Assembly: GCA_965208105.1 (NCBI GenBank)
Contig: OZ242318.1
Location: 1,088,001 to 1,152,000, forward strand
DNA: 64,000 nt
Reading direction: 5' to 3'
DNA from: Candidatus Latescibacterota bacterium
Lineage (GTDB): Bacteria > Latescibacterota > UBA2968 > UBA8231
In this document: one piece after another, positions 361 through 60,331 of the stretch
Numbering within the stretch: position 1 is the stretch's first letter
Layout: the number at the start of each line of letters is the position of its first letter
Position numbers and translations under genes: made by a program
The notes under the pieces: generated by a model
What the model saw: only the letters and a program-made list of their open reading frames with translations
What the model was told of the DNA's origin: nothing
Databases searched by the model: none

Positions 361-626
361 GGAATTGGGAAGGGGTCTGATTGTGTGTTGAGGGATTGGC
401 CTTTGCGTACGTTCCGTAGATTGCAAAATCCCGTTACAGCAATTGAAACAAACCACCGATTGAAAGATTCAGATAGTGAAGATTTCGGTTGTGGTCGAAG
501 TACCGGCCTGTCACATTGGCCTGCAGGAGAATCCTCGCCCTTCCTTGCCGTACGGGTATACCATACCCCAGTCCCAGTAACGCCCCCAAGCCCATATCGC
601 CGGCTCTCCACCTGACAAATTGCAGA

Positions 627-7447: not shown

Positions 7448-8836
7448 TCAGAACTGCTCCTCCGGCTCCATCATGTATTCAGGGGCCCTGTTCTCGAAGG
7501 TGGCGCATTCCCCGTTCCATGCCATGTCCACCGACCCGACCGGACCGTTGCGCTGCTTGCCGATGATGATTTCGGCATGGCCTTCCATACTGTCGCCGTC
7601 AGGATCTTTCATGCCGTAGACCTCGGGCCGGTAGATGAACATCACCAGGTCGGCGTCCTGCTCGATGGACCCTGACTCGCGCAGGTCCGAAAGCTGCGGG
7701 CGGCGGTCGGTGCGGCTCTCCACGGCGCGCGACAACTGGGCCATGGCCAGCACCGGGAGGTCCAGCTCCTTGGCCAGGGCCTTGAGCCCCCGGGAGATGT
7801 GCGAGATTTCCTGTTCTCGGCTGTTGAACTGCTGATGTCCGCTCATCAGCTGCAGGTAGTCGACCACTATGAGGCCGACCCCGTGCTCGCGCTGCAGGCG
7901 GCGGGCCTTGGCGCGGGCCTCCAGGACGGTGATACCGGGAGTGTCGTCGATGTAGATGGGGGCCTGCGCCAGCCGGGTGATATTCCGGGTCAGGTGCACC
8001 CAGTCGTCTTCGCGCAGGCGGCCGGTGCGCAGCTTGTGCAGGTCCAGCCGGGTCTCGATGCACAGGAGGCGTTGAGCCAACTGCGTGCTGGACATCTCCA
8101 GGCTGAATATGCCCACCCCCACCCCCGCCTCCATGGCCGCGTTCCGCGCCAGGCACAGGCCCAGGGCGGTCTTGCCGACGCTGGGGCGGGCGGCCACGAT
8201 CACCAGGTCGCCGCTCTGGAACCCGGAGGTCAGGTCGTTGAGGTCGCGGTAGCCGGTCTCCACGCCTGAAACGGTGCTGGCCTGGCTGTGGACCCGCTCG
8301 ATCTGCTCGACGGTCTCCCCCAGGACGCTGTCGAGCTTGGCAAAACCCTGGCTCAGCCCCCTTTCCGACAGGGCGAAGATCCGCTGCGCCGCCCAGTCGA
8401 TCACCTCGTGGATATCGCGGTGGTCCTCGTAGGCCTGCTCGCTCATCTGGGCCGAGGTCTCGATCAGCTTGCGACCGAGAGCCTTTTCCAGCACGATCCT
8501 GGCGTGGTGGTCGATGTTGGCGGCGCTCGCCACCTGCGTGGCCAGGGTCGCCAGGTAGACCCTGTCGCCCACCTCCTCCAGTTGACCGCGCTTTCTCAGC
8601 TCCTCCGCCAGGGTGAGCTGATCGACCGCTTCGTTGCCTTCGTAGAGCGCGAGGATGGCCTCGTAGATCTGGTTGTGGGACTTGTGGTAGAAACAGTCGG
8701 TGTCGAGGATCTCGATGGCGCGTCCGATGGCGCGCCGGTCGATGAGCATGGCGCCCAGAACGGCCTGCTCCACCTCCAGGGCCTGTGGCGGCAGGCGCTC
8801 CACGTTCGCTCCCCGGTCGAGGTGGGCCTGGCTCAT
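7448..8836 (-). CDS. dnaB: Replicative DNA helicase DnaB
   Basis: LPPQALEVEQAVLG, AARPSVGKT, VDYLQLM, QLSR, LRESGSIEQDAD, KQRNGP. Confidence 0.98.
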   Translation of the reverse strand: MSQAHLDRGANVERLPPQALEVEQAVLGAMLIDRRAIGRAIEILDTDCFYHKSHNQIYEAILALYEGNEAVDQLTLAEELRKRGQLEEVGDRVYLATLATQVASAANIDHHARIVLEKALGRKLIETSAQMSEQAYEDHRDIHEVIDWAAQRIFALSERGLSQGFAKLDSVLGETVEQIERVHSQASTVSGVETGYRDLNDLTSGFQSGDLVIVAARPSVGKTALGLCLARNAAMEAGVGVGIFSLEMSSTQLAQRLLCIETRLDLHKLRTGRLREDDWVHLTRNITRLAQAPIYIDDTPGITVLEARAKARRLQREHGVGLIVVDYLQLMSGHQQFNSREQEISHISRGLKALAKELDLPVLAMAQLSRAVESRTDRRPQLSDLRESGSIEQDADLVMFIYRPEVYGMKDPDGDSMEGHAEIIIGKQRNGPVGSVDMAWNGECATFENRAPEYMMEPEEQF

Positions 8837-47362: not shown

Positions 47363-50300
47363 GTTTCAATCCGCTCCCCTCACCGAAGCAAGGGGAGATG
47401 GTCGACCTGCTGACGGTAGGGCTCGTAGGCGAGGTTTCAATCCGCTCCCCTCACCGAAGCAAGGAGAGATGGCTCGATCTGCGAAAGGTCCACGCCTCGA
47501 TGGGGTTTCAATCCGCTCCCCTCACCGAAGCAAGGGGAGATCCACGCCTCGGCCTCGGGACGAAAGCAACCCAGGGTTTCAATCCGCTCCCCTCACCGAA
47601 GCAAGGGGAGATCGCCTATTGGGGTATTACCACCAGGGCCTGCGGGTGTTTCAATCCGCTCCCCTCACCGAAGCAAGGGGAGATTGGTTTTCCAATGCAC
47701 CAACACCCAGGTTGATAGTGTTTCAATCCGCTCCCCTCACCGAAGCAAGGGGAGATCTGTCCAACCCCATCGATTGCGGTGCCTACATTCGAGGTTTCAA
47801 TCCGCTCCCCTCACCGAAGCAAGGGGAGATCGGGCGTCGCCCGGGGGACTACTTATATCGACATGTTTCAATCCGCTCCCCTCACCGAAGCAAGGGGAGA
47901 TATCTACCTCCGGGACGGTATGGCTTGCACCTGGTGCGGTTTCAATCCGCTCCCCTCACCGAAGCAAGGGGAGATTCAAGGCTGGGCCACGACAGTATCG
48001 GCGCCAGAATAGTTTCAATCCGCTCCCCTCACCGAAGCAAGGGGAGATCAGGGCGCACCGTCGCCACACCCGCGCCCGCGTGGTTTCAATCCGCTCCCCT
48101 CACCGAAGCAAGGGGAGATCCACCCCTCGCCTTTTGGTGGCCTGCAAATTCCAGTTTCAATCCGCTCCCCTCACCGAAGCAAGGGGAGATTTCCCGAGGT
48201 TGGCCCATTCCGATCATCTGCACATGTTTCAATCCGCTCCCCTCACCGAAGCAAGGGGAGATGCTGTTGGTCGCAGCGTAGGCCACCACGTCCATGAGTT
48301 TCAATCCGCTCCCCTCACCGAAGCAAGGGGAGATCCAGCGCATACAGCCTCCTCTCAGCGGTAGCGGTAGTTTCAATCCGCTCCCCTCACCGAAGCAAGG
48401 GGAGATCTGCTCGGCTTGTCCGCAAGCTCTGACCCTGACGCTGTTTCAATCCGCTCCCCTCACCGAAGCAAGGGGAGATCCGAATCTCCAGCAATGCTGG
48501 TATCTTACCAATTAGTTTCAATCCGCTCCCCTCACCGAAGCAAGGGGAGATCCCCCATGATCCGGAGTGCAAATCGCTTTCTGATAGTTTCAATCCGCTC
48601 CCCTCACCGAAGCAAGGGGAGATAGCGACCCGCGTGTTTTTGGGTGATTTGTTAGTTGTTTCAATCCGCTCCCCTCACCGAAGCAAGGGGAGATGACGGC
48701 AAAGCGGGGGAATCAGTGAGACGGACAGAGTTTCAATCCGCTCCCCTCACCGAAGCAAGGGGAGATCTCGGTGCCCGGCCAGCCGGCCCCGACCACCTAC
48801 GTTTCAATCCGCTCCCCTCACCGAAGCAAGGGGAGATTCGGGCGGGTCCTACAGCCCGAACACGGGCGACGTGTTTCAATCCGCTCCCCTCACCGAAGCA
48901 AGGGGAGATACGCCCGGCGCAGGCGAGACGACCTACCTGATTACGTTTCAATCCGCTCCCCTCACCGAAGCAAGGGGAGATCGGCCCTACCTGGCGCTAT
49001 GACACCTCGCGCCGCTCGTTTCAATCCGCTCCCCTCACCGAAGCAAGGGGAGATGGCGGCGTCAGGGCCAGGGCCACCGCGGAGATCGAGTTTCAATCCG
49101 CTCCCCTCACCGAAGCAAGGGGAGATGATGGCGTCGATTATTTTTGCCTGATCTCTGGACAGTTTCAATCCGCTCCCCTCACCGAAGCAAGGGGAGATAG
49201 CTGCTGATTCCCTGGATGATGCCCTGGTGCACGGTTTCAATCCGCTCCCCTCACCGAAGCAAGGGGAGATTGGCGCGGCTGATGGATCAGGGCAGGCCGT
49301 AGAGGGTTTCAATCCGCTCCCCTCACCGAAGCAAGGGGAGATATGGAGTGCCAGTTCCGATATCCTTGTCCGCGGAGTTTCAATCCGCTCCCCTCACCGA
49401 AGCAAGGGGAGATACAGCATCGAAATCTGAGCACGGAAAATTGGGTTGTTTCAATCCGCTCCCCTCACCGAAGCAAGGGGAGATCGTTCCTCCAATTCCA
49501 TACGGCGCTCATTCACCGCGTTTCAATCCGCTCCCCTCACCGAAGCAAGGGGAGATCCGACGGCGCGGTGCGCGCGTGGAGCTTCGACCCGGTTTCAATC
49601 CGCTCCCCTCACCGAAGCAAGGGGAGATCGGTTAAGGAGGATCAACACCTGTGCCGCACGGTATTGTTTCAATCCGCTCCCCTCACCGAAGCAAGGGGAG
49701 ATCGCTCAAGCTGCTTTCCTTCCAAAGGTTCCGGCCCGTTTCAATCCGCTCCCCTCACCGAAGCAAGGGGAGATCGGTCCCGCCGGCCCATGTCCGCCAA
49801 CGATGAACGGGTTTCAATCCGCTCCCCTCACCGAAGCAAGGGGAGATCCGACGGCGCGGTGCGCGCGTGGAGCTTCGACCCGGTTTCAATCCGCTCCCCT
49901 CACCGAAGCAAGGGGAGATCGGGGCATCGTCTCGTTCAACAACACGTTCTACCTGTTTCAATCCGCTCCCCTCACCGAAGCAAGGGGAGATCTTCGTAGG
50001 GATCAGCAACGTCATCGGCATCCGGTGTTTCAATCCGCTCCCCTCACCGAAGCAAGGGGAGATAGTGATCTCTTGCAGCCTGTCGGTGGGATGATCGGTT
50101 TCAATCCGCTCCCCTCACCGAAGCAAGGGGAGATTTACCTCATCGCTAAAATCCGTCCCATTGATACTGTTTCAATCCGCTCCCCTCACCGAAGCAAGGG
50201 GAGATTCGAGCGCTACGGCCATTCATCTGCAACCAGCGAGTGTTTCAATCCGCTCCCCTCACCGAAGCAAGGGGAGATTTGTCGTGGGGTTAAGACTGCC

Positions 50301-52155
50301 GGTAATACGGTTGTTTCAATCCGCTCCCCTCACCGAAGCAAGGGGAGATCAACAAAGTGGGGCACATCCTCGATACGCAGCCCTGTTTCAATCCGCTCCC
50401 CTCACCGAAGCAAGGGGAGATTTCTGATGGCGTCGATTATTTTGCCTGATTCTCTGGACAGTTTCAATCCGCTCCCCTCACCGAAGCAAGGGGAGATTCT
50501 TGCCGATTATCCTGGACGAGAGCGAAGCAAAGGTTTCAATCCGCTCCCCTCACCGAAGCAAGGGGAGATATCTCTCTTTGACTGTGGCTTTTTTGCCTGT
50601 CCTGTTTCAATCCGCTCCCCTCACCGAAGCAAGGGGAGATTTATCTACGATCTGGCGGGCGGGTCGGATGCAGCGGTTTCAATCCGCTCCCCTCACCGAA
50701 GCAAGGGGAGATTGGTTTGTTGTGCCTTGCATGGTTCCAATTTATAGAGTTTCAATCCGCTCCCCTCACCGAAGCAAGGGGAGATCAGGCAACCTAAATC
50801 TGACATTCACCGTATACGAGTGTTTCAATCCGCTCCCCTCACCGAAGCAAGGGGAGATCCGCCCGGATTGCTCCAGGCGGTCCTTAATCAGCTGTTTCAA
50901 TCCGCTCCCCTCACCGAAGCAAGGGGAGATGACCTCCCTACGGACCATTTCAAACGCTTGGGTAAGTTTCAATCCGCTCCCCTCACCGAAGCAAGGGGAG
51001 ATCTTTTTGGGCTGATACAGCAACGTGCACGGCAACGTTTCAATCCGCTCCCCTCACCGAAGCAAGGGGAGATGGGTATATCCCAAAGAGCTGAGAGCGT
51101 GGGTTTACGTTTCAATCCGCTCCCCTCACCGAAGCAAGGGGAGATCAGAGCAACAAAGTCACCGAATAGCAATATACCCGGTTTCAATCCGCTCCCCTCA
51201 CCGAAGCAAGGGGAGATCTCCCGGCGGATCATTACAACAGCTCGGATCGCCACGTTTCAATCCGCTCCCCTCACCGAAGCAAGGGGAGATAATGGGAATG
51301 CCCCGCCAAAGTTCCATTTCATACGTTTCAATCCGCTCCCCTCACCGAAGCAAGGGGAGATTTCTCCGCCTCGGCCCTGTCGATTACTCCATACCTGTTT
51401 CAATCCGCTCCCCTCACCGAAGCAAGGGGAGATCCAGCTTCTGAGCGGCACCCATACGACCATAAGAGTTTCAATCCGCTCCCCTCACCGAAGCAAGGGG
51501 AGATGTCGGTGATTTCACTCGTTTGACTCCAGTCTTTGGTTTCAATCCGCTCCCCTCACCGAAGCAAGGGGAGATCAGCGGCGGCGGCGGTTGACAAGTG
51601 GGTCGATCGTGTGTTTCAATCCGCTCCCCTCACCGAAGCAAGGGGAGATGCAATATGGACTGCCGAATCCTGGGAAACCTCGGCGTTTCAATCCGCTCCC
51701 CTCACCGAAGCAAGGGGAGATGTATGTGCTGGATAATGATTTCGCGGTGTTTGAAGTTTCAATCCGCTCCCCTCACCGAAGCAAGGGGAGATCGACTAGC
51801 TTGGTAGTCTGTTCAGCCAGCAATCCGTTTCAATCCGCTCCCCTCACCGAAGCAAGGGGAGATCTCTGAGTTCTCTTGCGTCTGTAAGAGCATCTTCGTT
51901 TCAATCCGCTCCCCTCACCGAAGCAAGGGGAGATTCCCTTGAGGAGACCTCCCCCCCACCAATGCCACGTTTCAATCCGCTCCCCTCACCGAAGCAAGGG
52001 GAGATCTATTCAAATCGCTCCTTCCTATGCAGATTACTCTAGTTTCAATCCGCTCCCCTCACCGAAGCAAGGGGAGATAGCGCATTGGGTTAATGCGCGG
52101 TGATCAAGGCTGAGATCTGTTTCAATCCGCTCCCCTCACCGAAGCAAGGGGAGAT
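47363..52155 (-). CRISPR. Type I-C CRISPR array, 67 repeats and 66 spacers of about 34-40 nt
   Basis: 37-bp repeat, minus strand ATCTCCCCTTGCTTCGGTGAGGGGAGCGGATTGAAAC (10-bp stem, UUCG loop); one variant repeat at 47434 near the trailer end; leader on the cas2 side. Confidence 0.99.
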
Positions 52156-52335: not shown

Positions 52336-52626
52336 CTATAAGACCAGTGGCTCATTCAGATCCACGGGTTCACCGAGCCCGTGATGCTCCGTCTTGTCTC
52401 TGGCATCTTCGTCCAGGTGATAAAACCTGAGCGAATCCTGTTTTGGATCCATTTCCTTCAGCAGACGACTCCTGAGCGCTGCCCATTGGGTCTTTCCCAG
52501 GCGACATTCAAAGAGCGATTTCTGAACCCGGATACCGTAATCCTTACAGGCTCTTGCTACCTTGCGCAGGCGCCGTTGGCCAGCTCGATCTATCGTTGAA
52601 ACATCGTAAGCGATCAGGATGAACAT
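52336..52626 (-). CDS. cas2: CRISPR-associated Cas2
   Basis: ILIAYDV, RRLRKVARAC..YG.RVQKSLFEC, DSLRFY. Confidence 0.97.
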   Translation of the reverse strand: MFILIAYDVSTIDRAGQRRLRKVARACKDYGIRVQKSLFECRLGKTQWAALRSRLLKEMDPKQDSLRFYHLDEDARDKTEHHGLGEPVDLNEPLVL

Positions 52627-53687
52627 TATTTCGGAATGAAGGGAATGTAGTCAGGGACATCGCCGCGCAGCTTGCGGGCCAATAACTTGGCCTGGATGCT
52701 GAACACTTGACCTAAACAAATATTCTCCTTGAACAGGGCGTGCTTTATTTCCGTTTGCTTGCGCCGTTGCCAAGCCTGGATGACCTCTTTCCTGCCCTTT
52801 TCGGTAAATTCTACAGCGCCACCCTCTCGTTCGCGAAAGTGCCCGGACTCGATCTGCCTGCGATTGATCAAGGTCAATGCCAACCGCTCTGCCAAACAGG
52901 GCCGGAACTCTTCCATCAGATCCAAGGCGCAAGCCGGCCTGCCCGGGCGCGTTGCATGAAGCCAGCCGACATAGGGATCCAGTCCGGCGGTTGTCAAAGC
53001 CGCCAGGCAATCGTGGCGGATCAAGGCATAAATGAAGGAGAGCAGGCAGTTTATCTGGTCCCGGGGCGGACGACGGGTACGGGTCACAAATCTGAAATCT
53101 TCCCGTTGCTGTTTGAGCATGTATTGGAACACCGAGAAATACACTTTGGCTCCCATTCCCTCCAGGCCCCTGATCGGGTCCAGGGCCTCCCGAACCCCGC
53201 AATCCGGGGCAACGGGCTCAGCATTGCCGAGTTGGTGGATCAGTTGCACCAATTCATCTGCCGCACCCGCCAATGCCGTGCGGTCTGCATCATCCTCGGC
53301 TTCCCGGCCGGCTCGTAAAAGATTGGATCGCGCATTTTGCAGCTTCCCGGCCACAAACTGCCGGGCAATGCCAGCCGCATCCTGTGAGCTGTCCGCCGCC
53401 GCGTACTGAGCCCGGCGCAGCAAGTAGCGGGTGTCTCCGCTTCCCAGGACCTGCGCCAGCAAGTAGCCGTTTTCCGTGTGGTAATGCACCGCTACCTGAT
53501 GCTCCCAGCAAAAGGCCATGGCCTGAGGCGTAACCACGACCCGGCCAAACGCGCAAATGCTTTCCAAATGATGAATTGGCACGGTCAGGCGGGTTTGTTT
53601 TTCGATCACGACCCGAAGCGTCAAGTGATCTCTGTGTACTACAGTACCCGGTGTCGTCAAGTAGAGAATGTTTTGGACGACGGCCAT
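52626..53687 (-). CDS. cas1: CRISPR-associated Cas1, type I-C
   Basis: NILYLTT, RGLEG, RTRRPPRD.INCLLSF.Y, GLDPYVG.LH, LDLMEEFR. Confidence 0.97.
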   Translation of the reverse strand: MAVVQNILYLTTPGTVVHRDHLTLRVVIEKQTRLTVPIHHLESICAFGRVVVTPQAMAFCWEHQVAVHYHTENGYLLAQVLGSGDTRYLLRRAQYAAADSSQDAAGIARQFVAGKLQNARSNLLRAGREAEDDADRTALAGAADELVQLIHQLGNAEPVAPDCGVREALDPIRGLEGMGAKVYFSVFQYMLKQQREDFRFVTRTRRPPRDQINCLLSFIYALIRHDCLAALTTAGLDPYVGWLHATRPGRPACALDLMEEFRPCLAERLALTLINRRQIESGHFREREGGAVEFTEKGRKEVIQAWQRRKQTEIKHALFKENICLGQVFSIQAKLLARKLRGDVPDYIPFIPK

Positions 53688-53723
53688 GTTTCAACCCGTT
53701 TCTTTACTGAAGTAGTGAGCACC
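53688..53723 (-). repeat. Degenerate CRISPR-repeat-like element (psiR3) abutting the cas1 ATG
   Basis: Plus strand GTTTCAACCCGTTTCTTTACTGAAGTAG aligns to the repeat GTTTCAATCCGCTCCCCTCACCGAAGCAA with one gap and mainly C-to-T changes; contains the cas4 stop. Confidence 0.65.
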
Positions 53724-54425
53724 CTGGTCGCTGGTATCGAACACTGCCCGATAGGCCCGCACCAGCGTAGGCGGGACACTGGTGACTTCGGGTAGGCAAT
53801 GGTCAAAAAGTGAGCACTCGGAGCATTGGGGTTTGTGGACGGCTTGAGGTACCACTTCCTCTTCGATCAGCCGGTGCATGGCTTCGATGGCCTGTTCGGT
53901 GAGGCGGCGCAAATCCTCGGTAAATTCCACCTCTCGGCGGCGCTTGCTCTTGGCGTGGAAGATCGCCCCCTTGGGAATGTCCAGTCCGAACATTTCTTCG
54001 AGGCACAACGCTTGGGCGCAAAGCTGAGCGTCGTCGTTGTCGAATTTGCGGCGTTTGCCCTTTTTGTATTCAACTGGATAGACGCTTTCAACATTATCCG
54101 GCAAATATCGGGATATTTTTCGCTTAGAAGGGCGTTTTAGTTTCACCTCAACAATATCGCATTTTCCAGAAAGGCCCAACCTTTGGGACCATACCGGCAA
54201 CGCCCGAAGCACTTCTGAATCTACCGCCTTCTCGTACCCTGGAATATCGGCTTGCTCGTGAAATTGACTACCGATCAGTGTGTGCTCATTGTCGGTAAAA
54301 GTGCCCTCGACATGAATCAAGGCCGCCCGCCGTGGGCAATAGAGGTACTGGTTGATAGCGGAAAGCGCGATGATCCGCTCCCCGCTATCGAATGGGTGGA
54401 TCGGTTGGGTAGTCAATTCACTCAT
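53691..54425 (-). CDS. cas4: CRISPR-associated Cas4
   Basis: LSAINQYLYCPR, GKCDIVE, PVEYKKG, QLCAQALCLEEM, CSECSLFDHCLP. Confidence 0.96.
   Translation of the reverse strand: MSELTTQPIHPFDSGERIIALSAINQYLYCPRRAALIHVEGTFTDNEHTLIGSQFHEQADIPGYEKAVDSEVLRALPVWSQRLGLSGKCDIVEVKLKRPSKRKISRYLPDNVESVYPVEYKKGKRRKFDNDDAQLCAQALCLEEMFGLDIPKGAIFHAKSKRRREVEFTEDLRRLTEQAIEAMHRLIEEEVVPQAVHKPQCSECSLFDHCLPEVTSVPPTLVRAYRAVFDTSDQGAHYFSKETG
54367..54401 (-). repeat. Degenerate CRISPR-repeat-like element (psiR2) inside the cas4 5' coding region
   Basis: Minus strand ATCCACCCATTCGATAGCGGGGAGCGGATCATCGC shares ATC, TTCG and an exact 11-mer GGGGAGCGGAT with the repeat; 24 nt downstream of psiR1. Confidence 0.55.
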
Positions 54426-54461
54426 GTTTCAATCCGCTCCTCCGCCGAAGTGAGAGGAGGC
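54426..54461 (-). repeat. Solitary CRISPR-repeat-like element (psiR1) between cas7 and cas4
   Basis: Minus strand GCCTCCTCTCACTTCGGCGGAGGAGCGGATTGAAAC: last 15 nt identical to the repeat, TTCG loop kept, compensatory stem change; directly followed by the cas4 ATG. Confidence 0.92.
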
Positions 54462-54474
54462 ATATACGTGAAAC

Positions 54475-55428
54475 TCACTCATGACGCCTGTGTAGGCGAA
54501 CGCCTCCGGGCAGCTCAGCACTGTCCCACCCGCAGCTAATCTCATAATCGGCAAAGGATTGGGGAAATTCTACGCTGTCCTTCAGTTTCACCTCGATTCC
54601 CTCAAAGAGCTTGTGAGCATGGGCGCAGCCGAGACGGGCTTCGCGTTTGTTTTGTTCGGCGTTATTCTCATGCTGAGTACCGACATGCTCAAAGTCGTAA
54701 ATCCCTCGCACCACCATTTCCCCGCGGGCAGCAGAGCGGTCGTGCTCAAACATGTGGTTGAGCGCATCGAAAAGGACTTCAAGGTCAGTGCTGGTGAAAC
54801 CTGTGCGCTCGGCGAAAGCAGGCGAGACATAAACCTTGGCAGCGTAGAGAGCGTATGGGACGATGTGCTTATTGCCCATGGTACGTTCTTTGTCGGCATC
54901 TTCCTCTTTGGTGACAGCTCCGCGAGTGATGGAGATTTCCAATGGCGTGATAGAATGGTAAGACTGGCCGAAGGTGAATTGCACCGGGCCCCGCACTTGT
55001 CCCCAAGCGGAACCTTTCATGATGTCGTCGCCGGTAGAGAGTACACCGCCGAATGTTCGCACGTCAAAGAATTCACGACACAGCCATTTCATGGCCGCTT
55101 CTTGCTTTTGGTCTTTGGAAGCTCCCGAGGCTAAACTCTCGCCGCTTTTTTCTATGCCGTTATTGATCTCGTTGTTGAGTACGGCACCCTGCCTGATGAG
55201 CAGGTTATAGCCATTACCATCGTCGCCAGTGCGCTCGGGCGGGAATGTTTCCACAAAGTTGCGCACCTTGCGCTTGAGACACACGTCGGAAACGATACCC
55301 CGATTGGTGTTGTGGTCTTGACGCGGCATGTTGCCAGCATCAGGATCGCCATTGGGATTTCCATTGGTGACCTCGAAGAGCAGCAAAACATCGTGCCGAT
55401 TGGTGAGAATATCGTTGTTCTGATTCAT
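54475..55428 (-). CDS. cas7: Cas7c (Csd2)
   Basis: NGNPNGDPDAGNMPR, SDVCLKRKVRN, FDVRTFG, GQVRGPVQF, TMGNKHIVPY, EHDRSAARG. Confidence 0.97.
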   Translation of the reverse strand: MNQNNDILTNRHDVLLLFEVTNGNPNGDPDAGNMPRQDHNTNRGIVSDVCLKRKVRNFVETFPPERTGDDGNGYNLLIRQGAVLNNEINNGIEKSGESLASGASKDQKQEAAMKWLCREFFDVRTFGGVLSTGDDIMKGSAWGQVRGPVQFTFGQSYHSITPLEISITRGAVTKEEDADKERTMGNKHIVPYALYAAKVYVSPAFAERTGFTSTDLEVLFDALNHMFEHDRSAARGEMVVRGIYDFEHVGTQHENNAEQNKREARLGCAHAHKLFEGIEVKLKDSVEFPQSFADYEISCGWDSAELPGGVRLHRRHE

Positions 55429-55455
55429 TGATGAGCCCTTTCTGTGAAAAATTTA

Positions 55456-55866
55456 TTAGTTGCTTTCCTTTTCTTCTTTTGCTGCTTCGCGGGCGACGCG
55501 GTCGGCGGCCTTTTGCTGGTAAAAGCCGAGGGCAAAGCGCCCCTGTGCATGCAAATCCAGTGTACGGGGAAATGGGTAGATTTTAGTTGACACTTCTTGA
55601 ATAGCCTTGTCCAAAGAGCGGTCATGTCCTTTGTACTTATCGGACTTACGGATATTGTTGAGATGGTGGCGGTTGAGCTTGAGGAGGACGGGGAACACTG
55701 AGGCTGGCGAGGCCATGGCAGTGCCAAAATAACGCTCGGCAACACCGGCTCCTTCGAGTTGATAATCATGTGCCTTGGCTTGGGCCTCGGCGAGTACAGC
55801 GAGTAGCCGTCCGCATTGATAGGCGGCATCTTCCGCCTTTGCATCCTGTTGTTCAGTAATTTCCAT
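55456..55866 (-). CDS. cas11: Probable internally translated Cas11c small subunit (136 aa)
   Basis: In-frame ATG (MEITEQQ) preceded by AAGGAAAAGATC just before the AYQCGRLLA domain, matching the known I-C arrangement. Confidence 0.7.
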   Translation of the reverse strand: MEITEQQDAKAEDAAYQCGRLLAVLAEAQAKAHDYQLEGAGVAERYFGTAMASPASVFPVLLKLNRHHLNNIRKSDKYKGHDRSLDKAIQEVSTKIYPFPRTLDLHAQGRFALGFYQQKAADRVAREAAKEEKESN

Positions 55867-57300
55867 GATCTTTTCCTTTCGATTCCGATTGAGAATGAGC
55901 TTCGCCAAGGCGAACCGTGAATGGTTCAACAATGCCGTGCTTCCATCGCGTGCCATATCAACCCGCAGGCGGTTCAACATGGGATGCAAAAAAGCCAGTG
56001 AGGGCGCGGTTCCTTCCAGCGCGGCACGAAACAACTGGGCGGTCACTTCCGTCTGCAAATCTTTTGCGTCGCGTACTGTAGTGCAAGCCAGTCGGAACAA
56101 AGCTAATGGCGGCATTTTTTCTTTGCCAGTAGGCAGACGCACCGGTTCCAGATCGAGATCGCGGAACCAGTGTTGCAGGTTTTCTGTGGCGGTTTCCAGT
56201 GTAGTCTGCATCCAGTGGCGCACGACAATCCGGCCACTATTGCCGGCGAGAGTGACGGCATGGAATTGCTCTTGCCGTAGTGCCTCGCGTTCCCGTCCAG
56301 CCCACGGAGACTTCAAAAAATTCGCCACTGCTATGGGATCGGCTTGGTTGAGCAAAGCCCCAAAAGTGCTGGTGGCGTCCGTTTCATTACGGGTCCAAAA
56401 ACAGCAAGATGCCTGCCCTAAGCGGACAGAATGATCTTCGCGGTCGAGCATTGCGTTGAGCGCGGTGCAATAGGCAGTAGCTGCTCGGGTGGAGGTAGAA
56501 GCGTTGAGACTTTGCTCAAAACCGTAGGAGGCGAAGGCATCCTTATCAAACGAGACAATCGCCGCGCCAAAGGCTTGAGTGTTGGGCACTCTTTGGATTT
56601 TAGGATTGTGAGTCAGCGCAATAGGCTGATCGCTCTTCCCAGTGACCAAGCAGAGTCCGTGAGGCGCATCTGCTTCGTGGTCTTGATTTTCTTGCTCGAA
56701 TTGACTACGCCAAAAGGGTCGGATGTGAATCTCATCCTCCAGCAGCAATTGTTCTTCTACGCGGAATGAGAAGTTGTCCGGCCCTAGCTTGACCTCTCCA
56801 CCGTCGGCTTTAGTGATCCACCAAGCAGGTCTTTCTTTGGGCTTGGGGTCGGAACTGATTCCCCAACGCAAAAAGGATGGCATCTGCCCCGGCTCAGGCT
56901 TGAAAGCCAACAGGGTCTTGAGCACCGGGCTGAGTGTTTTCTCGTGGGCCTGTTTAATCTGTGTCCAAAAGTCATCGTATTTACGGAGGTTGTTCTCATT
57001 CCGGTCCTTCCGCTTCTTTTCAGACATAGGTCGTTCCGGGTTCGTGTCCAATCCGAACACGGCTGTAATACTGTCCGCCATGAACTCGGCCACCCCACCA
57101 GCCACCTTGGGTCGAGTTGTCTGTGGGCAATCGAACTCCTTACCTCGGTTCCTTTCCCCCTCGGTCTCCACCGGCCCCTGCCCCACGAGATTGCCCGTCG
57201 TGTCCAAAGTAATGATCCATCGCACCGCCTTGGGTTTGAATCCTAGGTTATTAAGGAGTTCTCGAGAGATTGCAAAATCGTTCAAATATTGCAGCAGCAT
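55456..57300 (-). CDS. cas8c: Cas8c (Csd1)
   Basis: MLLQYL, CLVTG, IVSF..DAFASYG, NSGRIVVR, AY.CGRLLA, QGRFALGFYQQ. Confidence 0.93.
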   Translation of the reverse strand: MLLQYLNDFAISRELLNNLGFKPKAVRWIITLDTTGNLVGQGPVETEGERNRGKEFDCPQTTRPKVAGGVAEFMADSITAVFGLDTNPERPMSEKKRKDRNENNLRKYDDFWTQIKQAHEKTLSPVLKTLLAFKPEPGQMPSFLRWGISSDPKPKERPAWWITKADGGEVKLGPDNFSFRVEEQLLLEDEIHIRPFWRSQFEQENQDHEADAPHGLCLVTGKSDQPIALTHNPKIQRVPNTQAFGAAIVSFDKDAFASYGFEQSLNASTSTRAATAYCTALNAMLDREDHSVRLGQASCCFWTRNETDATSTFGALLNQADPIAVANFLKSPWAGREREALRQEQFHAVTLAGNSGRIVVRHWMQTTLETATENLQHWFRDLDLEPVRLPTGKEKMPPLALFRLACTTVRDAKDLQTEVTAQLFRAALEGTAPSLAFLHPMLNRLRVDMARDGSTALLNHSRFALAKLILNRNRKEKIMEITEQQDAKAEDAAYQCGRLLAVLAEAQAKAHDYQLEGAGVAERYFGTAMASPASVFPVLLKLNRHHLNNIRKSDKYKGHDRSLDKAIQEVSTKIYPFPRTLDLHAQGRFALGFYQQKAADRVAREAAKEEKESN

Positions 57301-57302
57301 TA

Positions 57303-58115
57303 TCAGATTCCCTTGGGTTCGAGAATTTCAACTTCATCGGGATGGCAAGATAAGGTGGAATCCTCAATCTTGGCGCGGAAAAAACAGGCCCTAGGTTTAG
57401 CCAATTCACCGACGAAACGCGGAGTACTTTTCTTGGGTTTGTCCCCCAATTCATCGGGACGTTTCCAGCGAAAACCCTGAGCGCGGGCCGTGGGCGAAAA
57501 AACGTCGTAGAGCATCAAACCCAAATCCTCCACGGGCTGTCGCCAACTGTCACCCAATTCAGTGACTCGCTCTTCCAGAGCGGCTTGGGGGTCATCAACC
57601 CACTCGAAATCCGCCGCGAATTCACGCATACCCAAGGCAGGCCGATGGAAGCACTTGCCCTGCTGAGCGCGACGCTTGAATTCAGCGAAATACTTCACCA
57701 GTGTATCGTTTGGGTGATTCGCCAACGGCGTGGTACGCAGTTCGGCGCTGATGATGTATTCTACCTCTTGCAGGGCTAACATGTTGCGCTGAGTGCCGTC
57801 AGGTGCGCCTCCGCCAGCTTCAATGGGCGATACCTTTTCCGGCTGCCTCATCCATTGGCTGACGTTGCGTAGGCTGATGACCGATTGCACTTCATTGCGC
57901 CGAATCGAGGCCCACCGGCCTCGCTGAACCACCCGGATGGCAGCAACGCAATAGCAAACTTGGGGTTCCCAAAACACGGCTTCCAAAATGCCCCGTGCGG
58001 CAGAGGGCGTCATCACCGGATAGCTGACGCGCTCCACTTTCATTTCGGGACGGGTGAAACAGGCCCAATCGCCCCATACTCTCAGGTGTACATGAAAATT
58101 TTTATTATTTTTCAT
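57303..58115 (-). CDS. cas5: Cas5c (Cas5d), crRNA-processing subunit
   Basis: VWGDWACFTRPEMKVERVSYPVMTPSAARGILEA, RRNEV, CFHRPALGMREF, DLGLMLYD. Confidence 0.97.
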   Translation of the reverse strand: MKNNKNFHVHLRVWGDWACFTRPEMKVERVSYPVMTPSAARGILEAVFWEPQVCYCVAAIRVVQRGRWASIRRNEVQSVISLRNVSQWMRQPEKVSPIEAGGGAPDGTQRNMLALQEVEYIISAELRTTPLANHPNDTLVKYFAEFKRRAQQGKCFHRPALGMREFAADFEWVDDPQAALEERVTELGDSWRQPVEDLGLMLYDVFSPTARAQGFRWKRPDELGDKPKKSTPRFVGELAKPRACFFRAKIEDSTLSCHPDEVEILEPKGI

Positions 58116-60331
58116 AATAAGAAATCCTCAGTCGGACGTTGGTCGATAACCACGCCGAGATGTTCGTGATAAGCAGCTTCATCCAGTACGCTCAGTTCCA
58201 TACCGGGTAACAGCGGGCGAAGCAGTCCCATGTTGTCGACCTTCTGAAAATCGCGCAAATGCAGATTCACTATAAAGCGTTGAAGATCGCGCAAATCCTT
58301 GCGAGTGAAGCGCGGACCATCTATTTGGGGGCGCTCCCGGATAGCGGCTACCATTCCCAAGGCTTCCTCCCTTGGCGCGATTACAGCTTGGGTGTCATCG
58401 GAAATTACCTTCGCCTTGCTGGCTACTTCACGAAAACGCAATGCTTCTCGATCCTCCTGAATGGAGCTCTCTCGACGGCGTTGATAATCCGTGGGCACGT
58501 ATTGAAAAAGCTCGCCAAAGTAACGACGGAACAAATCCGGCTCGCCAGATAAGTCATCCGCGGACAACCGATATAGCAACCGCGCCGCAATGTCCGTAGC
58601 TACGCGATATACGCCGCCGGGCAGCTTGGGGTCTGTTGGCCGGAATACCACTACACGCCCCTTGTCGGGTAAGAGTCCTTCCCGATTACAGCGGCCCGCT
58701 GCTTGCACGATCGAATCCAGTGGCCCCAAGGCACGGTAAACCAACGGAAAATCAATATCCACTCCGGCCTCTATTACCTGAGTCGCCACCAACCAACAAG
58801 GTTTTTCGTTTTTCAAACGCCATTGCGCTTCCGCCAGAACTTTGAACCGATGCTCAGCGCACATGGCCGAGGAAAGATGCAGTACACCTTCTAATTTTTG
58901 CCCGCGCAGCAGTTCCCACCATTCAGCCGCCTGTTTGCGCGTATTCACCACACCCAAGGCTTGAGGCTCATTCGTCCATTCCTTAGCCAATTCAGGCCAA
59001 TCGCTCTCCGTGGACCGCACCTCGTAAATTACCCGGCCTAGCTTCTGAAACAACTCGCTAGGCTGTGCCCCGATCTCTTTCACTTCATCCACATCGAAAC
59101 CATTCGCCAACGATGTGCTGCGACTAAAGGCTGGTTGGGTAGCGGTGGAGAAAACGAAACTCGTGCAGTAGTGTTTTTGGAGATCGCGTAGCACATGCAG
59201 GAGCGGATTGAGCAGATGCGAAGGCAGCGTCTGCACTTCATCCAGTAATACCACGGAACTCGCAATGTTGTGCAGTTTTCGGCACTTGGAGGTGCGATTG
59301 GCAAAGAGGGACTCAATGAATTGTACTGAGGTGGTGACGATGACCGGAGCGTCCCAGTTCTCCGCTGCCAATTCCTCTGGGGACCGGCCTTGCTCCCCAT
59401 CGTCATCCTTCGCAACTACTGCCGAATGATGCTCAATCACGATGCCTTCGTTTTGGGGATCAAGCACTTTGCGATATTCGGCGGCATTCTGTTCAATGAT
59501 TGACAGATAAGGTATCACCACGATCACCCGCTGCATCCCATGTCGCCGTGCATGTTCCAAGGCAAAGGCCATGCTCGATAGCGTTTTGCCACCTCCCGTC
59601 GGCACGGTTAGAGAAAAGAAGCCTACTGGTTCCGCCGCCTTTGCCAAGCAGTCCTCAAACACCCTGTTGCGTAACTGATTGAGTTTGCCGGAAGCATCAA
59701 ACTTGCCTCGGTGTGCTTGCAGTCGCTTCAGTAGCAACGGGACATCCAGCTTCACTGGATAGCGCTCCCGTCCTGAGCTGAATTGTTCCGTATCAAGAAA
59801 ATCCGCATCCACCAAGCAGGAAAACAACATCCGCACGTAGAATTCGGCGACGGCTGGATCCCCCGAGCGCTCGACAAATTCGGGTTCGGCCAGCTTGTTT
59901 GGAATTTTTTCCAGTTCCGTCTCAAACCGCTTTACCAGAGGATCGAGACGGTTCATGGCATCGTACTTTTCTCCGCAGACCAATCCTTGCAAATCACTTA
60001 CGTTATGTAGACCCGCATGATGTCCGGCAATGGCAAACGCCGGTGCCAGCCATCCTCTGATGAATGCCAGTGCAGCACCATACACCGCATGATGGGTTTC
60101 AGCCGATCCCGGACGCTCGTCTGCCAGATATTCTTGGAAAGCCTGGCTATATTTTCCCAGATCGTGGAGCAGACCGGCCAATTTGGCACCATCGGCAAAA
60201 CCGAACGGTCCGGCGAATCCCCGAGCCCTGTCCGCTACGTTTCGCAAATGCTCGGATAACGGTTGCCAACGCGATTTATTCGGATCGGGTTCTCCAGTAG
60301 CCGTTTCGGCTGTATGGGCATAGTAGTTCAT
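58112..60331 (-). CDS. cas3: Cas3 HD nuclease-helicase
   Basis: YAH, LSEHL, LHDLGK, GHHAGL, LVDADFLDT, VPTGGGKT, DEVQ, TAT, QAAGRCNREG. Confidence 0.98.
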   Translation of the reverse strand: MNYYAHTAETATGEPDPNKSRWQPLSEHLRNVADRARGFAGPFGFADGAKLAGLLHDLGKYSQAFQEYLADERPGSAETHHAVYGAALAFIRGWLAPAFAIAGHHAGLHNVSDLQGLVCGEKYDAMNRLDPLVKRFETELEKIPNKLAEPEFVERSGDPAVAEFYVRMLFSCLVDADFLDTEQFSSGRERYPVKLDVPLLLKRLQAHRGKFDASGKLNQLRNRVFEDCLAKAAEPVGFFSLTVPTGGGKTLSSMAFALEHARRHGMQRVIVVIPYLSIIEQNAAEYRKVLDPQNEGIVIEHHSAVVAKDDDGEQGRSPEELAAENWDAPVIVTTSVQFIESLFANRTSKCRKLHNIASSVVLLDEVQTLPSHLLNPLLHVLRDLQKHYCTSFVFSTATQPAFSRSTSLANGFDVDEVKEIGAQPSELFQKLGRVIYEVRSTESDWPELAKEWTNEPQALGVVNTRKQAAEWWELLRGQKLEGVLHLSSAMCAEHRFKVLAEAQWRLKNEKPCWLVATQVIEAGVDIDFPLVYRALGPLDSIVQAAGRCNREGLLPDKGRVVVFRPTDPKLPGGVYRVATDIAARLLYRLSADDLSGEPDLFRRYFGELFQYVPTDYQRRRESSIQEDREALRFREVASKAKVISDDTQAVIAPREEALGMVAAIRERPQIDGPRFTRKDLRDLQRFIVNLHLRDFQKVDNMGLLRPLLPGMELSVLDEAAYHEHLGVVIDQRPTEDFLL

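Follow-up and report, generated by a model that had tools for sequence, protein, structure and literature searches.

A solitary CRISPR repeat abutting the cas4 start codon of a type I-C operon: possible regulatory tag or tolerated scar

The type I-C cas operon in the stretch of DNA analyzed here (64,000 nt in total, referred to below as the window) raises the question of why a copy of its own CRISPR repeat stands directly before cas4, and whether this copy might work as a Cas5c-operated switch on spacer acquisition, as proposed in the original prediction. All parts of the system are found on the minus strand: cas3, encoding an HD nuclease and helicase (58112..60331; NCBIfam TIGR01587, 107.9 bits, and TIGR01596, 106.4 bits), cas5c (57303..58115; TIGR01876, 114 bits with a cut-off of 85, aligned to the solved chains 3kg4, 3vzi, and 8dej), cas8c (55456..57300; TIGR01863, 332.8 bits), cas7 (Csd2; 54475..55428; TIGR02589, 281.9 bits), cas4 (53691..54425; TIGR00372, 128.4 bits), type I-C cas1 (52626..53687; TIGR03640, 415.8 bits), cas2 (52336..52626; TIGR01573, 63.7 bits), and an array of 67 repeats of 37 nt, ATCTCCCCTTGCTTCGGTGAGGGGAGCGGATTGAAAC (47363..52155), with the 3' end GGATTGAAAC. 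This repeat family is the source of the copy before cas4. In an Rfam search, the array repeats matched CRISPR-DR9 weakly, below the threshold, and no known RNA family was matched at the solitary copy.

The cas7 stop codon TGA (54475-54477) is separated from the cas4 start codon ATG (54425-54423) by a 49-nt gap (54426-54474), which contains a single degenerate copy of the 37-nt repeat (54426..54462), hereafter the mimic, preceded by the 12-nt 5' flank GTTTCACGTATA (54463..54474), in which GUUUCA and the UGAAAC of the handle are able to pair. The last 14 nt of the mimic, GAGCGGATTGAAAC (54426-54439), are identical to the 3' end of the array repeat at 14 of 14 positions and end exactly at the cas4 ATG; they include the 11-nt handle CGGAUUGAAAC (54426..54436), likewise the same as in the array. 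This 14-mer has 68 matches in the window, 67 in the array (47363-52132) and one in the mimic, compared with 0.03 expected in shuffled sequence. A covariance model of sequence and structure, derived from 22 distinct array repeats, assigns 35.9 bits to the mimic (E = 1.4e-8 in 160 kb), so that the central observation of the original prediction, a repeat mimic abutting the cas4 ATG, is confirmed. The mimic is the sole clear solitary copy in the 4.85-Mb genome and is not part of any repeat-spacer periodicity, the nearest repeat-like remnant being 730 nt away (53688-53696).

Array repeats form a 10-bp stem (220 of 220 cells paired), whose five outer pairs are invariant in the 22 distinct repeats. 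A stem of the same length had been predicted for the mimic, but folding gives only 7 bp plus one isolated C-G pair around a UUCG loop, with a 3' arm that is one base shorter. The 5' arm CUCCUCU (54453..54459), which begins 15 nt after the cas7 stop codon, pairs with the 3' arm GGAGGAG (54437..54443), which ends 11 nt before the ATG. The reported change from C-G to T-A on both arms is real: pair 5 is U-A in the mimic and C-G in the array. The predicted hairpin is also recovered, but the fold of the gap (-15.7 kcal/mol, z = -2.0) is only modestly better than those of shuffled sequences, 8 of 200 of which are equally good. At the energy minimum, the tail is paired through its UGAAAC to the 5' flank. 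Related loci vary widely in this respect. In L010 and L011, a 14-bp hairpin covers the Shine-Dalgarno (SD) sequence and half of the tail, burying CGGAUU (-23 and -25.4 kcal/mol, z = -5.2, none of 200 shuffles), with extra pairing gained between AGUCCGC of the flank and GCGGAUU. The folds of L001 and L024 are no better than shuffles (z = +0.19 and +0.15), and a structure-based throttle would therefore not be general.

The GGAGGAG in the 3' arm is, as predicted, the only SD-like sequence in the gap. The double change in the stem is not, however, what first brought an SD-like sequence here, since the unaltered repeat of the array has GGGGAG in the same position; L001 keeps AGGGGAG. Across the genome, GGAG at 11 nt from an ATG is above background (80 cases, compared with 15 in the control), but the spacing has its mode at 7 nt (168 cases) with 5-9 nt preferred, so the 11 nt seen here is longer than preferred. 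Where cas4 still overlaps cas7, and in the uninserted alleles of the other genes described below, there is no SD before the ATG; the unit brings one. A 13-codon upstream open reading frame (ORF; ATG..TGA, 54422..54463) runs through the hairpin, with its stop codon overlapping the cas4 start as ATGA. This ORF, which might be translated, is also intact in L001 and is missing in L010, L011, and L024. A consensus scan at the mimic detected neither a sigma-70-like promoter nor a terminator, and an internal promoter or terminator was rejected on this basis.

The origin of the mimic can be traced in 19 close type I-C loci, 5 of which contain the element, 2 contain it in a decayed form, 5 have another gene at the junction, and 7 (L003, L004, L005, L006, L014, L019, and L047) retain a cas7/cas4 overlap of the form ATGAnTGA with no gap. 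The mimic is present in none of the about 135 more distant I-C loci, which have short gaps or overlaps without a repeat tail. When 87 loci were scored against their own repeats (a count that leaves out the window locus and L001, both of which match exactly), two or fewer mismatches were found only in L024 (one) and L010 (two). The I-C loci brought up by a metagenome scan with a Cas7 alignment were for the most part distant (42-77% identity), and no further mimic was among them. A search of genome contigs with a degenerate tail-plus-ATG pattern found 18 stretches, of which 13 are unrelated sites, 2 are arrays, and 3 are the mimic loci already known. In a variant from a DNA run, the tail ends with GAAGC before ATGAGTGAATTGGTT.

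The mimic-containing loci carry the octamer ATGAGTGA twice, on both sides of the insert; in the window, the two copies of the duplicated former overlap are the last 8 nt of cas7 (54475-54482) and the first 8 nt of cas4 (54418-54425). Judging from these sequences, the mimic is a derived insertion of a partial spacer and a repeat into the former 8-nt overlap, and both cas7 and cas4 stayed whole because the overlap was duplicated. The insert is best read as a partly decayed unit of the locus's own array, with ∼12 nt of spacer and one 37-nt repeat. The assignment of the 12-nt flank to an array spacer is suggested by analogy with the 35-nt spacer-sized flank at the 81-aa ORF insertion (see below). 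Immediately 5' of the cas1 ATG, the sequence GGTTGAAAC (53688..53696) is likely a remnant of a second repeat-derived unit, as this cas4-cas1 junction contains fuller repeat copies in L010, L011, and L024 (25.5-33.1 bits) and a decayed copy in L001. An origin from a self-targeting spacer is unsupported: when the opening 34 nt of the cas4 genes from 14 close loci were compared with these loci, none showed a second match (at least 24 of 34 nt), so no array spacer matches a cas4 start. Directly before the ATG, most of the overlap loci have GTC, and TTC occurs there in L047 and L008 alone; the other insertion sites are preceded by ACT/GCT or GCC.

Once acquired, the element has not always been kept. 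L003 is nested among the mimic-containing loci in the trees of Cas7 and Cas4 (the latter a quick version) and has lost the element cleanly; the element is decayed in L008 and L040, and the mimic is therefore dispensable. Decayed repeat copies are also seen in five loci with an inserted protease gene. As to covariation with the cognate repeat, which the original prediction offered as a test, mimic and array have inner-stem letters (TTAC) in common in L010 alone, and not in the window locus, L001, or L024; L011 has the TTAC letters too, but has no array beside its cas genes for comparison. Such limited sharing of stem letters fits a local origin of the unit and not an ongoing co-evolution.

Related genomes have similar units in front of unrelated genes too, at a distance of 0-1 nt from the start codon. 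The 14 distinct solitary-unit loci, from a biased sample of 10 genomes, include 5 that sit at this distance in the sense direction, whereas the expectation for ATG alone at 0-1 nt is about 3%; in this sample, the pile-up calls for selection or a very specific mechanism. One such unit, consisting of 35 nt (a spacer length) and a 36-nt repeat, is set exactly before the ATG of an 81-aa ORF; 28 of the 30 matched genomes lack it at the orthologous position. In 8 of 31 genomes, the 7 nt between the upstream stop codon and the start of a proteasome-type gene have given way to 15 nt and a repeat; the uninserted start of this gene, GCCGATGGAAAG, shares 9 of 12 positions with the tail, GCGGATTGAAAC. The genome G142 (a single contig, 94% complete) keeps such units without a hit to TIGR01876 (Cas5c) or TIGR00287 (Cas1). 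The covariance scores of the solitary copies form a continuum from 59.7 to 15.9 bits, with fresh copies elsewhere scoring 45-60, and slippage duplications of the tail are seen in L346, L347, L402, L011, and L024.

The suggestion that the structure of the mimic looks selected, and the expectation that it would be neither absent nor decaying in related loci, are both upheld only in part. In two lineages, the gap changes more slowly than synonymous sites: the window locus and L001 differ at 7 of 49 positions, with pS of 0.27-0.38 in cas4 and cas7 (P from 0.024 to 0.0003), and for L010 and L011 the figures are about 5 of 48 positions and a pS of 0.26-0.37 (P from 0.007 to 3e-5). The 14-nt tail is identical in the window locus and L001, which at synonymous rates has a chance of 0.011 to 0.001. 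Pairing is kept where the stem changes, as in pair 5 (C-G in the repeat, U-G in L001, and U-A in the window) and pair 3 (C-G in L011 and U-A in L010). On the other hand, the mimics are altered at stem positions that are invariant in the arrays (pair 5 in the window, pairs 1 and 5 in L001, and pair 3 in L010), their covariance scores range from 35.9 bits in the window down to 15.9 bits in L024, and the element has been lost or has decayed in near relatives. A role solely in ribosome binding leaves the unchanged 14-nt tail of the window locus and L001 unexplained.

The specificity of Cas5c, as described in the portion of PMC8524198 that was available, is set by the site of cleavage together with the base of the stem and the 3' tail, and not by the loop or the 5' end. 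The mimic retains the stem base and the tail, in agreement with the original prediction: four pairs of the stem base are kept, and the 11-nt tail is identical to that of the array repeat. By analogy with the cut position given in that portion of the article, Cas5c would be expected to cut between 54437 and 54436, and, judging from the retained letters, its binding to or cleavage of the mimic is plausible. The Cas5c encoded in the window has F, K, and Y at the triad positions (in FWEP and KY), compared with Tyr or His, Lys, and His in the published triad and with H..K-H in the respective columns of the solved chains 3kg4, 3vzi, and 8dej. Among the 19 close loci, the F is found in 18 and the KY also in 18. 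A Cas5c of this kind may nevertheless be active. Three RNA runs cover small shares of the window in the form of assembled contigs, which show neither ends nor strand. A 1604-nt contig of a relative from the RNA library X22 bridges positions 54175-55472, with 101 differences and 11 letters missing at 54432, although a contig from an RNA library, this one included, may derive from DNA.

The reading preferred here, which we give about an even chance, is that the array-derived insertion now serves as the hairpin-masked ribosome-binding site of cas4 and would couple translation in cis, holding the adaptation genes at a low level. Comparison with the relatives shows that an array unit (a spacer remnant and a repeat) was copied into the 8-nt overlap of cas7 and cas4 with duplication of ATGAGTGA. 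This broke the direct stop/start coupling and left the cas4 start 49 nt after the cas7 stop, and the sequence shows that cas4 now relies on the G-rich 3' arm GGAGGAG as its only SD, with the 11-nt tail as the spacer to the ATG. Because this SD lies in the hairpin and, in the window, the tail can pair with the 5' flank, initiation at cas4 is probably throttled, and the hairpin could be opened by ribosomes that finish cas7 or translate the 13-codon upstream ORF. Since the tail and the stem base are kept, Cas5c may additionally bind or cut the mRNA at 54437/54436, a step that the coupler does not require.

The switch envisaged in the original prediction assigns the decisive role to that last step: Cas5c would bind or cut the mimic in the polycistronic mRNA, hide or remove the cas4 SD, and part the interference genes from cas4-cas1-cas2, so that a high level of Cascade would lower spacer acquisition. 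This possible but doubtful mechanism draws on the intact tail and stem base, which are the very parts that, according to the available portion of PMC8524198, determine Cas5c specificity, and on the tail that stayed unchanged between the window locus and L001 at pS of 0.27-0.38 while changes in the stem kept its pairing. Furthermore, with the second unit at the cas4-cas1 junction of L010, L011, and L024, cas4 would be flanked by repeats in the way a spacer is, and RacrIC1, a solitary I-C repeat in a bicistronic mRNA, gave 5' RACE products and inhibited the I-C system (PMC10651486, in the portion available). However, a feedback switch designed for cas4 is hard to reconcile with the alteration of outer stem pairs that never vary in the arrays, the drop in scores to 15.9 bits, the pairing of half of the handle in the 14-bp stem of L010 and L011, and the F/K/Y triad. 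It would also leave unaccounted for the presence of the element in just 5 of the 19 close loci and none of the distant ones, its clean loss in L003, and the occurrence of repeat-plus-ATG units before unrelated genes, even in a genome without Cas5c or Cas1 hits.

In another reading, the mimic is a neutral scar, left when the array recombined with tail-like sites or when a template switch joined the two, and now on its way to decay or deletion. It would have no regulatory role other than allowing cas4 to be translated, and would be tolerated because the repeat happens to hold an SD at a usable distance. The continuum of scores, the decay in L008, L040, and the five protease-gene loci, the precise loss in L003, the patchy presence of units elsewhere (at the proteasome gene in 8 of 31 genomes, at the 81-aa ORF in 2 of 30 matched ones), the slippage duplications, the resemblance of the uninserted proteasome-gene start to the tail, and the persistence of a copy in G142 all point this way. 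Nevertheless, such a scar is rather unlikely, given that two independent pairs of loci change less than synonymous sites and keep pairing in the stem, that L010 and L011 have even gained pairing, and that 5 of 14 solitary units have ended up right before start codons. It is very improbable that the mimic acts as a guide, with the tail and the first ∼35 nt of cas4 loading Cascade, or as a decoy that soaks up Cas5c and Cas7 in the manner of Racr. There are precedents for such roles among solitary repeats and mini-arrays (from the available portions of PMC10120712 and PMC10651486), and the tail needed for Cas5 binding is intact, but there is no second repeat within spacer distance, and no TTC-flanked target of the pseudo-spacer with up to three mismatches was found in the window (18 nt) or the whole genome (21 nt). 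That search recovered only the cas4 site itself, which is preceded by AAC and not TTC. A guide against a PAM-flanked target was accordingly rejected within these limits.

The units before cas4, cas1, cas2, and unrelated genes could also be viewed together, as array units copied before start codons that tag mRNAs for Cas5c or Cascade and thereby form a post-transcriptional regulon. In such a regulon, which we consider unlikely, cas4 would be a giant spacer between two repeats, Cas5c would cut off the SD or seed Cascade at the 5' ends of tagged mRNAs, and spacer acquisition would be just one of the outputs. The mimic may thus be a regulatory tag or a tolerated scar. No description of array units that leave the array and are kept as ribosome-binding cassettes was found in the available portions of the published articles, supplementary files aside. 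If the element is no more than its sequence shows, the presence of such units in tight junctions of the cas operon and before ordinary genes represents a new route by which arrays reshape the host genome and marks the sites of recombination between cas modules. Should Cas5c act on these tags, the translation of adaptation genes and host genes would be under direct control of the enzyme that processes crRNA, which would be a natural counterpart of the synthetic Csy4-hairpin devices and a simple answer to the low level of acquisition relative to interference in type I systems.

In translational coupling, a hairpin-masked SD is opened by upstream ribosomes, and hairpins recognized by Csy4 or Cas6 serve as insulators in synthetic operons. 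The mimic resembles the couplers in that its SD is part of the 3' arm of a hairpin closely following the upstream stop codon, and the insulators in placing a repeat hairpin between two cistrons; it differs from both in being a natural, array-derived CRISPR repeat.

Compared with a pre-crRNA repeat, the substrate of Cas5c (PMC8524198, portion available), the mimic has a shorter, interrupted stem with changes at array-invariant positions and is not followed by a spacer and the next repeat; the Cas5c of this clade, too, differs from the catalytic positions given there. The crlRNAs, CreA, CreR, and standalone repeats (PMC10120712; 10.1101/2023.03.10.532045, both in the portions available) are likewise degenerate repeats in cas loci, for which regulation of cas genes has been proposed or shown. 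However, crlRNA, CreA, and CreR are guides of the repeat-spacer(-repeat) type, partly complementary to a promoter and usually located in long intergenic regions near cas3, cas8, or cas6, whereas the mimic is a single repeat in a 49-nt gap, fused to an ATG, with no promoter target at up to three mismatches. The available text of PMC10120712, exclusive of the supplementary tables, which may list I-C positions, mentions neither cas4 nor the ribosome. Solitary repeat units (SRUs) and RNA anti-CRISPRs (Racr) are also single repeat-like units outside an array that keep the hairpin and tail recognized by the cognate Cas RNA-binding proteins; an example is RacrIC1, which also shares its mRNA with a protein-coding gene (PMC10651486; PMC8616872, portions available). 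Like Racr, the mimic is a solitary copy of the host's repeat. According to the same sources, SRUs have been described from viruses and mobile elements, many of them shortly downstream of a promoter, and work against the CRISPR-Cas system of the host; a Racr would accordingly be encoded at a distance from cas genes. In contrast, the mimic lies inside the chromosomal cas operon of its host, carries an SD, and ends at a start codon, and its kin stand before housekeeping genes.

The window encodes a complete type I-C system on its minus strand, with all cas genes scoring above the curated NCBIfam cut-offs: cas3 (58112-60331), cas5c (57303-58115), cas8c (55456-57300), cas7 (54475-55428), cas4 (53691-54425), cas1 (52626-53687), and cas2 (52336-52626), followed by a CRISPR array with 67 repeats of 37 nt (47363-52155). 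Adjacent cas genes mostly overlap or almost touch, and real gaps are found only between cas8c and cas7 (27 nt) and between cas7 and cas4 (49 nt). The latter (54426-54474, minus strand) reads GTTTCACGTATA TGCCTCCTCTCACTTCGGCGGAGGAGCGGATTGAAAC, then ATG, and contains a degenerate solitary CRISPR repeat, referred to here as the mimic. Its last 14 nt are identical to the array repeat, the sole non-array match of 68 (0.03 expected by chance), and a covariance model built from 22 distinct array repeats scores it at 35.9 bits (E = 1.4e-8); the match and the score together confirm the original prediction of a repeat-like unit adjoining the cas4 ATG. In its stem, CUCCUCU pairs with GGAGGAG and pair 5 is U-A, where the array repeat has C-G, just as had been claimed; the 11-nt tail CGGAUUGAAAC lies between stem and ATG. 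This change did not, as also proposed, create the Shine-Dalgarno (SD)-like sequence, since the unaltered repeat already has GGGGAG there. Its folding is modest (-15.7 kcal/mol, z -2.0); in the minimum-energy structure, UGAAAC of the tail pairs with the flanking GUUUCA. The mimic is a solitary array-derived repeat unit that has become the translation initiation region of cas4.

Loci for comparison were gathered with Cas4 and Cas7 queries (34 and 22 genome loci, 80 metagenome loci, and 80 further genome loci), yielding 154 loci with both cas7 and cas4 once duplicates were dropped; 19 close loci have a Cas7 at least 70% identical to that of the window. In 7 of the 19, cas7 and cas4 overlap as ATGAnTGA (L003, L004, L005, L006, L014, L019, and L047); the mimic is present in five (the window, L001, L010, L011, and L024), a decayed version of it in two (L008 and L040), and a retropepsin-like gene between cas7 and cas4 in another five (L002, L007, L009, L027, and L044). 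A decayed mimic follows cas7 in three of these last five (L009, L027, and L044), and L009 also retains a remnant of an old 5' end of cas4. Where the mimic is present, a copy of the overlap sequence flanks the insert on each side: as ATGAGTGA in the window (54475-54482 and 54418-54425), over 9 nt in L001 and 12 nt in L010, with 11 of those 12 in L011. The mimic is a derived insertion. In the more distant I-C loci, cas7 and cas4 overlap or lie a short gap apart, and the repeat tail is absent. Among 87 loci scored, only L024 and L010 come within two mismatches of their own repeat; the window and L001, both exact matches, stand outside this count because the consensus repeat used to score them was cut short. 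Within the phylum, the junction query matches 21 of 168 genomes at all, and the whole junction with its insert is matched in five, the window's own included.

The insert has probably also been lost. In the Cas7 tree the overlap locus L003 is sister to the mimic locus L001 (support 97/91), and a quick Cas4 tree places it with the window in a clade (97% support) to which L001 also belongs. Because the inserts of the window and L001 are clearly homologous and L003 is nested with both, L003 most likely lost its copy through deletion between the direct repeats. Module histories conflict across the junction, dS between L024 and L010 being 0.38 in cas7 and 0.93 in cas4. In seven loci (L012, L016, L018, L021, L028, L029, and L032), this cas4-cas1-cas2 module and 37-nt repeat accompany another effector module, with a Cas3 of just 28-31% identity; adaptation modules have therefore been swapped between systems at the cas4 boundary. 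A close I-C locus has collapsed to a remnant in L034 (7655-8473; identical with L055), where pieces of cas7 (residues 131-245), cas4 (102-146), and cas1 (1-115) directly abut one another. The genome of L011 (G092) has no array within 6.5 kb downstream of cas2 in the cas operon; it holds 255 tail copies, some 300 kb from the cas genes.

Repeat-derived units also occupy the cas4-cas1 junction, at ∼8610-8646 in L010, ∼8630-8681 in L011, and ∼8720-8757 in L024 (25.5-33.1 bits), and a decayed copy adjoins the cas1 ATG in L001 (∼8730-8763). In several loci, therefore, cas4 has repeat-derived sequence on both sides. In the window only GGTTGAAAC remains directly 5' of the cas1 ATG (53688-53696, minus strand). 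The cas4 stop codon of L010 and L011 lies inside the 5' arm of the cas4-cas1 repeat. At the cas1-cas2 junction in the genome of L003 (L409, ∼435-448, minus strand), the tail GAGCGGATTGAAAC stands just 5' of the cas2 coding sequence, and an in-frame TTG within it is a possible cas2 start. Junctions with repeat remnants are also entry points of extra genes. The retropepsin-like aspartyl protease ORF (∼130 aa; L002:7585-7980; PF13975, 32.9 bits; PF13650, 29.2 bits) is found between cas7 and cas4 in L025 as well, between cas4 and cas1 in L008, and at L275:6915-7277, 2.4 kb from a two-repeat mini-array without nearby cas genes. The distant I-C locus L212 (5880-6380; Cas7 47% identical) has a degenerate copy of its own array repeat after cas7, then a HicA toxin (PF07927), a small partner ORF, and cas4.

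The gap evolves slowly in two pairs of loci. The window and L001 differ at 7 of 49 gap positions, with pS of 0.27-0.38 in cas4 and cas7 (binomial P, 0.024 to 0.0003), and L010 and L011 at ∼5 of 48, with pS of 0.26-0.37 (P, 0.007 to 3e-5). The stems of the window and L001 differ at four positions, in every case with pairing preserved (pair 1, C-G versus U-G; pair 5, U-A versus U-G; pair 7, U-G versus U-A), and L010 and L011 are separated by one complete C-G to U-A swap. In the latter two, GCGGAUU in the tail is base-paired to a new flank, AGUCCGC, as part of a 14-bp hairpin (z -5.2). To this extent the element is under some constraint, in line with the original proposal, but the folds of L001 and L024 are no better than shuffles, which argues against a general structural role. 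Every one of the 220 pair cells in the 22 distinct array repeats is paired; the outer five pairs are invariant and the inner ones covary. The mimics are altered at exactly those outer pairs and score 35.9 (window), 26.1 (L010), 21.9 (L001), 19.2 (L011), and 15.9 bits (L024), and are not bound by the array-repeat rules.

Unexpectedly, the mimic belongs to a wider family of repeat units placed exactly at start codons, in the adaptation operon and at ordinary genes. Elsewhere in the phylum, the junction query also picked up isolated matches of 37 nt. Across the 168 genomes, a tail with ATG or NATG directly after it occurs 54 times. In 12 instances no other tail lies within 160 nt: nine precede genes other than cas4, two are the cas4 cases, and one is a mini-array of two repeats. 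Among the products of these other genes, Pfam identifies a proteasome-type subunit (PF00227), a PhyH dioxygenase, a PPIase lipoprotein, and an LRR protein; also included is an ORF of 81 aa that matches no family. Units ending 0-1 nt before an ATG include L273:9223-9258, L339:2773-2803, and L274:9451-9487 (minus strand) and L276:4687-4722, L338:2257-2290, and L340:2719-2755. At the 81-aa ORF, an insert of 35 nt (spacer length) plus a 36-nt repeat lies exactly 5' of the ATG in 2 of 30 matching genomes (31 searched); at the proteasome gene, 15 nt plus a repeat replace a 7-nt stop-to-start spacer in 8 of 31, with 3'-arm deletions, shortened stems, and tandem tail slippage. The presence of such spacer-remnant-plus-repeat units at unrelated genes varies among species of one genus.

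An exact 14-mer census of ten genomes, a biased sample (five chosen for a tail-ATG match, five complete genomes without one), found 22 solitary sites at 14 distinct loci: five directly upstream (0-1 nt) of an ATG that opens an ORF of at least 81 aa, four 14-25 nt upstream (three with a likely SD of their own), and five elsewhere. By our estimate, ∼3% would have an ATG at offset 0 or 1 by chance. Among carriers, G142 (a single contig, 94% complete) has neither a Cas5c nor a Cas1 match, and G134 has no Cas5c match. Tandem duplication of the 9-nt tail unit GATTGAAAC, or its fusion with the similar gene start GATGGAAAG, is seen in L346 and L347 (proteasome-gene site), L402, L011 and L024 (cas4-cas1 junction), L343, and L365, which suggests replication slippage at these junctions. 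Two-repeat mini-arrays of the same family (repeat, ∼35-nt spacer, repeat) lie away from cas genes in L277 and at L275:9693-9803. Outside the window, its own genome (G000:C1:2921434-2921452, minus strand) has an 18/19 match to the repeat 3' half (GAGGGGAGAGGATTGAAAC) with no upstream stem partner and no ATG after it.

The cas4 SD sits 11 nt from the ATG, in the 3' arm of the hairpin that the repeat supplies. In the window's genome, GGAG peaks 5-9 nt from starts and is still enriched at 11 nt (80 versus 15 in the control). No SD precedes the ATG in the cas4 overlap state or at uninserted sites of the other genes. As read from the sequence, cas4 now depends on this repeat-derived SD. The most likely reading is that the unit acts as a portable SD-plus-spacer cassette, with the stem holding cas4 initiation low and linked to upstream translation. 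The window and L001 share a 13-codon ORF that begins, in the window, with the ATG at 54461-54463, traverses the stem, and has its stop overlapping the cas4 start as ATGA; this ORF could pass coupling on to cas4. Such a cassette or coupler would account for the 0-1 nt position rule, the sense orientation, and persistence in the absence of Cas5c, but not for the identity of the tail between the window and L001. A scar with no further role fits in part: it is consistent with the decay series and the clean losses, but less well with the constraint and the pile-up at start codons. For the mimic as a guide or decoy, no target preceded by TTC was found at up to 3 mismatches (18 nt searched in the window, 21 nt in the whole genome).

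That same tail identity is the best remaining argument for contact with Cas5c or Cascade. Reported determinants of Cas5c specificity are the base of the stem, the 3' tail, and the cut site (PMC8524198); the mimic retains the tail and, only in part, the stem base. At the published catalytic triad positions, Cas5c of the window (57303-58115, minus strand) and its clade has F, then K and Y, where the aligned solved enzymes have H, K, and H, and 18 of the 19 close loci share this pattern at each variable position. Over the sampled I-C loci these positions vary widely (H, Y, F, or L at the first; KH, KY, or KF at the pair); since such variants are common, the activity of the window-clade enzyme is uncertain rather than excluded. 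The originally proposed switch on spacer acquisition, in which Cas5c would bind or cut the mimic, is plausible, but the comparative data do not support it as a conserved design.

Among known systems, the titles and abstracts covered describe no repeat fused to a start codon or serving as a ribosome-binding site. Standalone repeats and mini-arrays have been surveyed, with repeat-like sequences in 34% of 1206 I-C loci (Table 1 of PMC10120712), and the parts of that survey consulted mention neither cas4 nor the ribosome. Solitary repeat units have been described as RNA anti-CRISPRs, including a I-C example on a bicistronic RNA (PMC10651486; see also the review PMC8616872).
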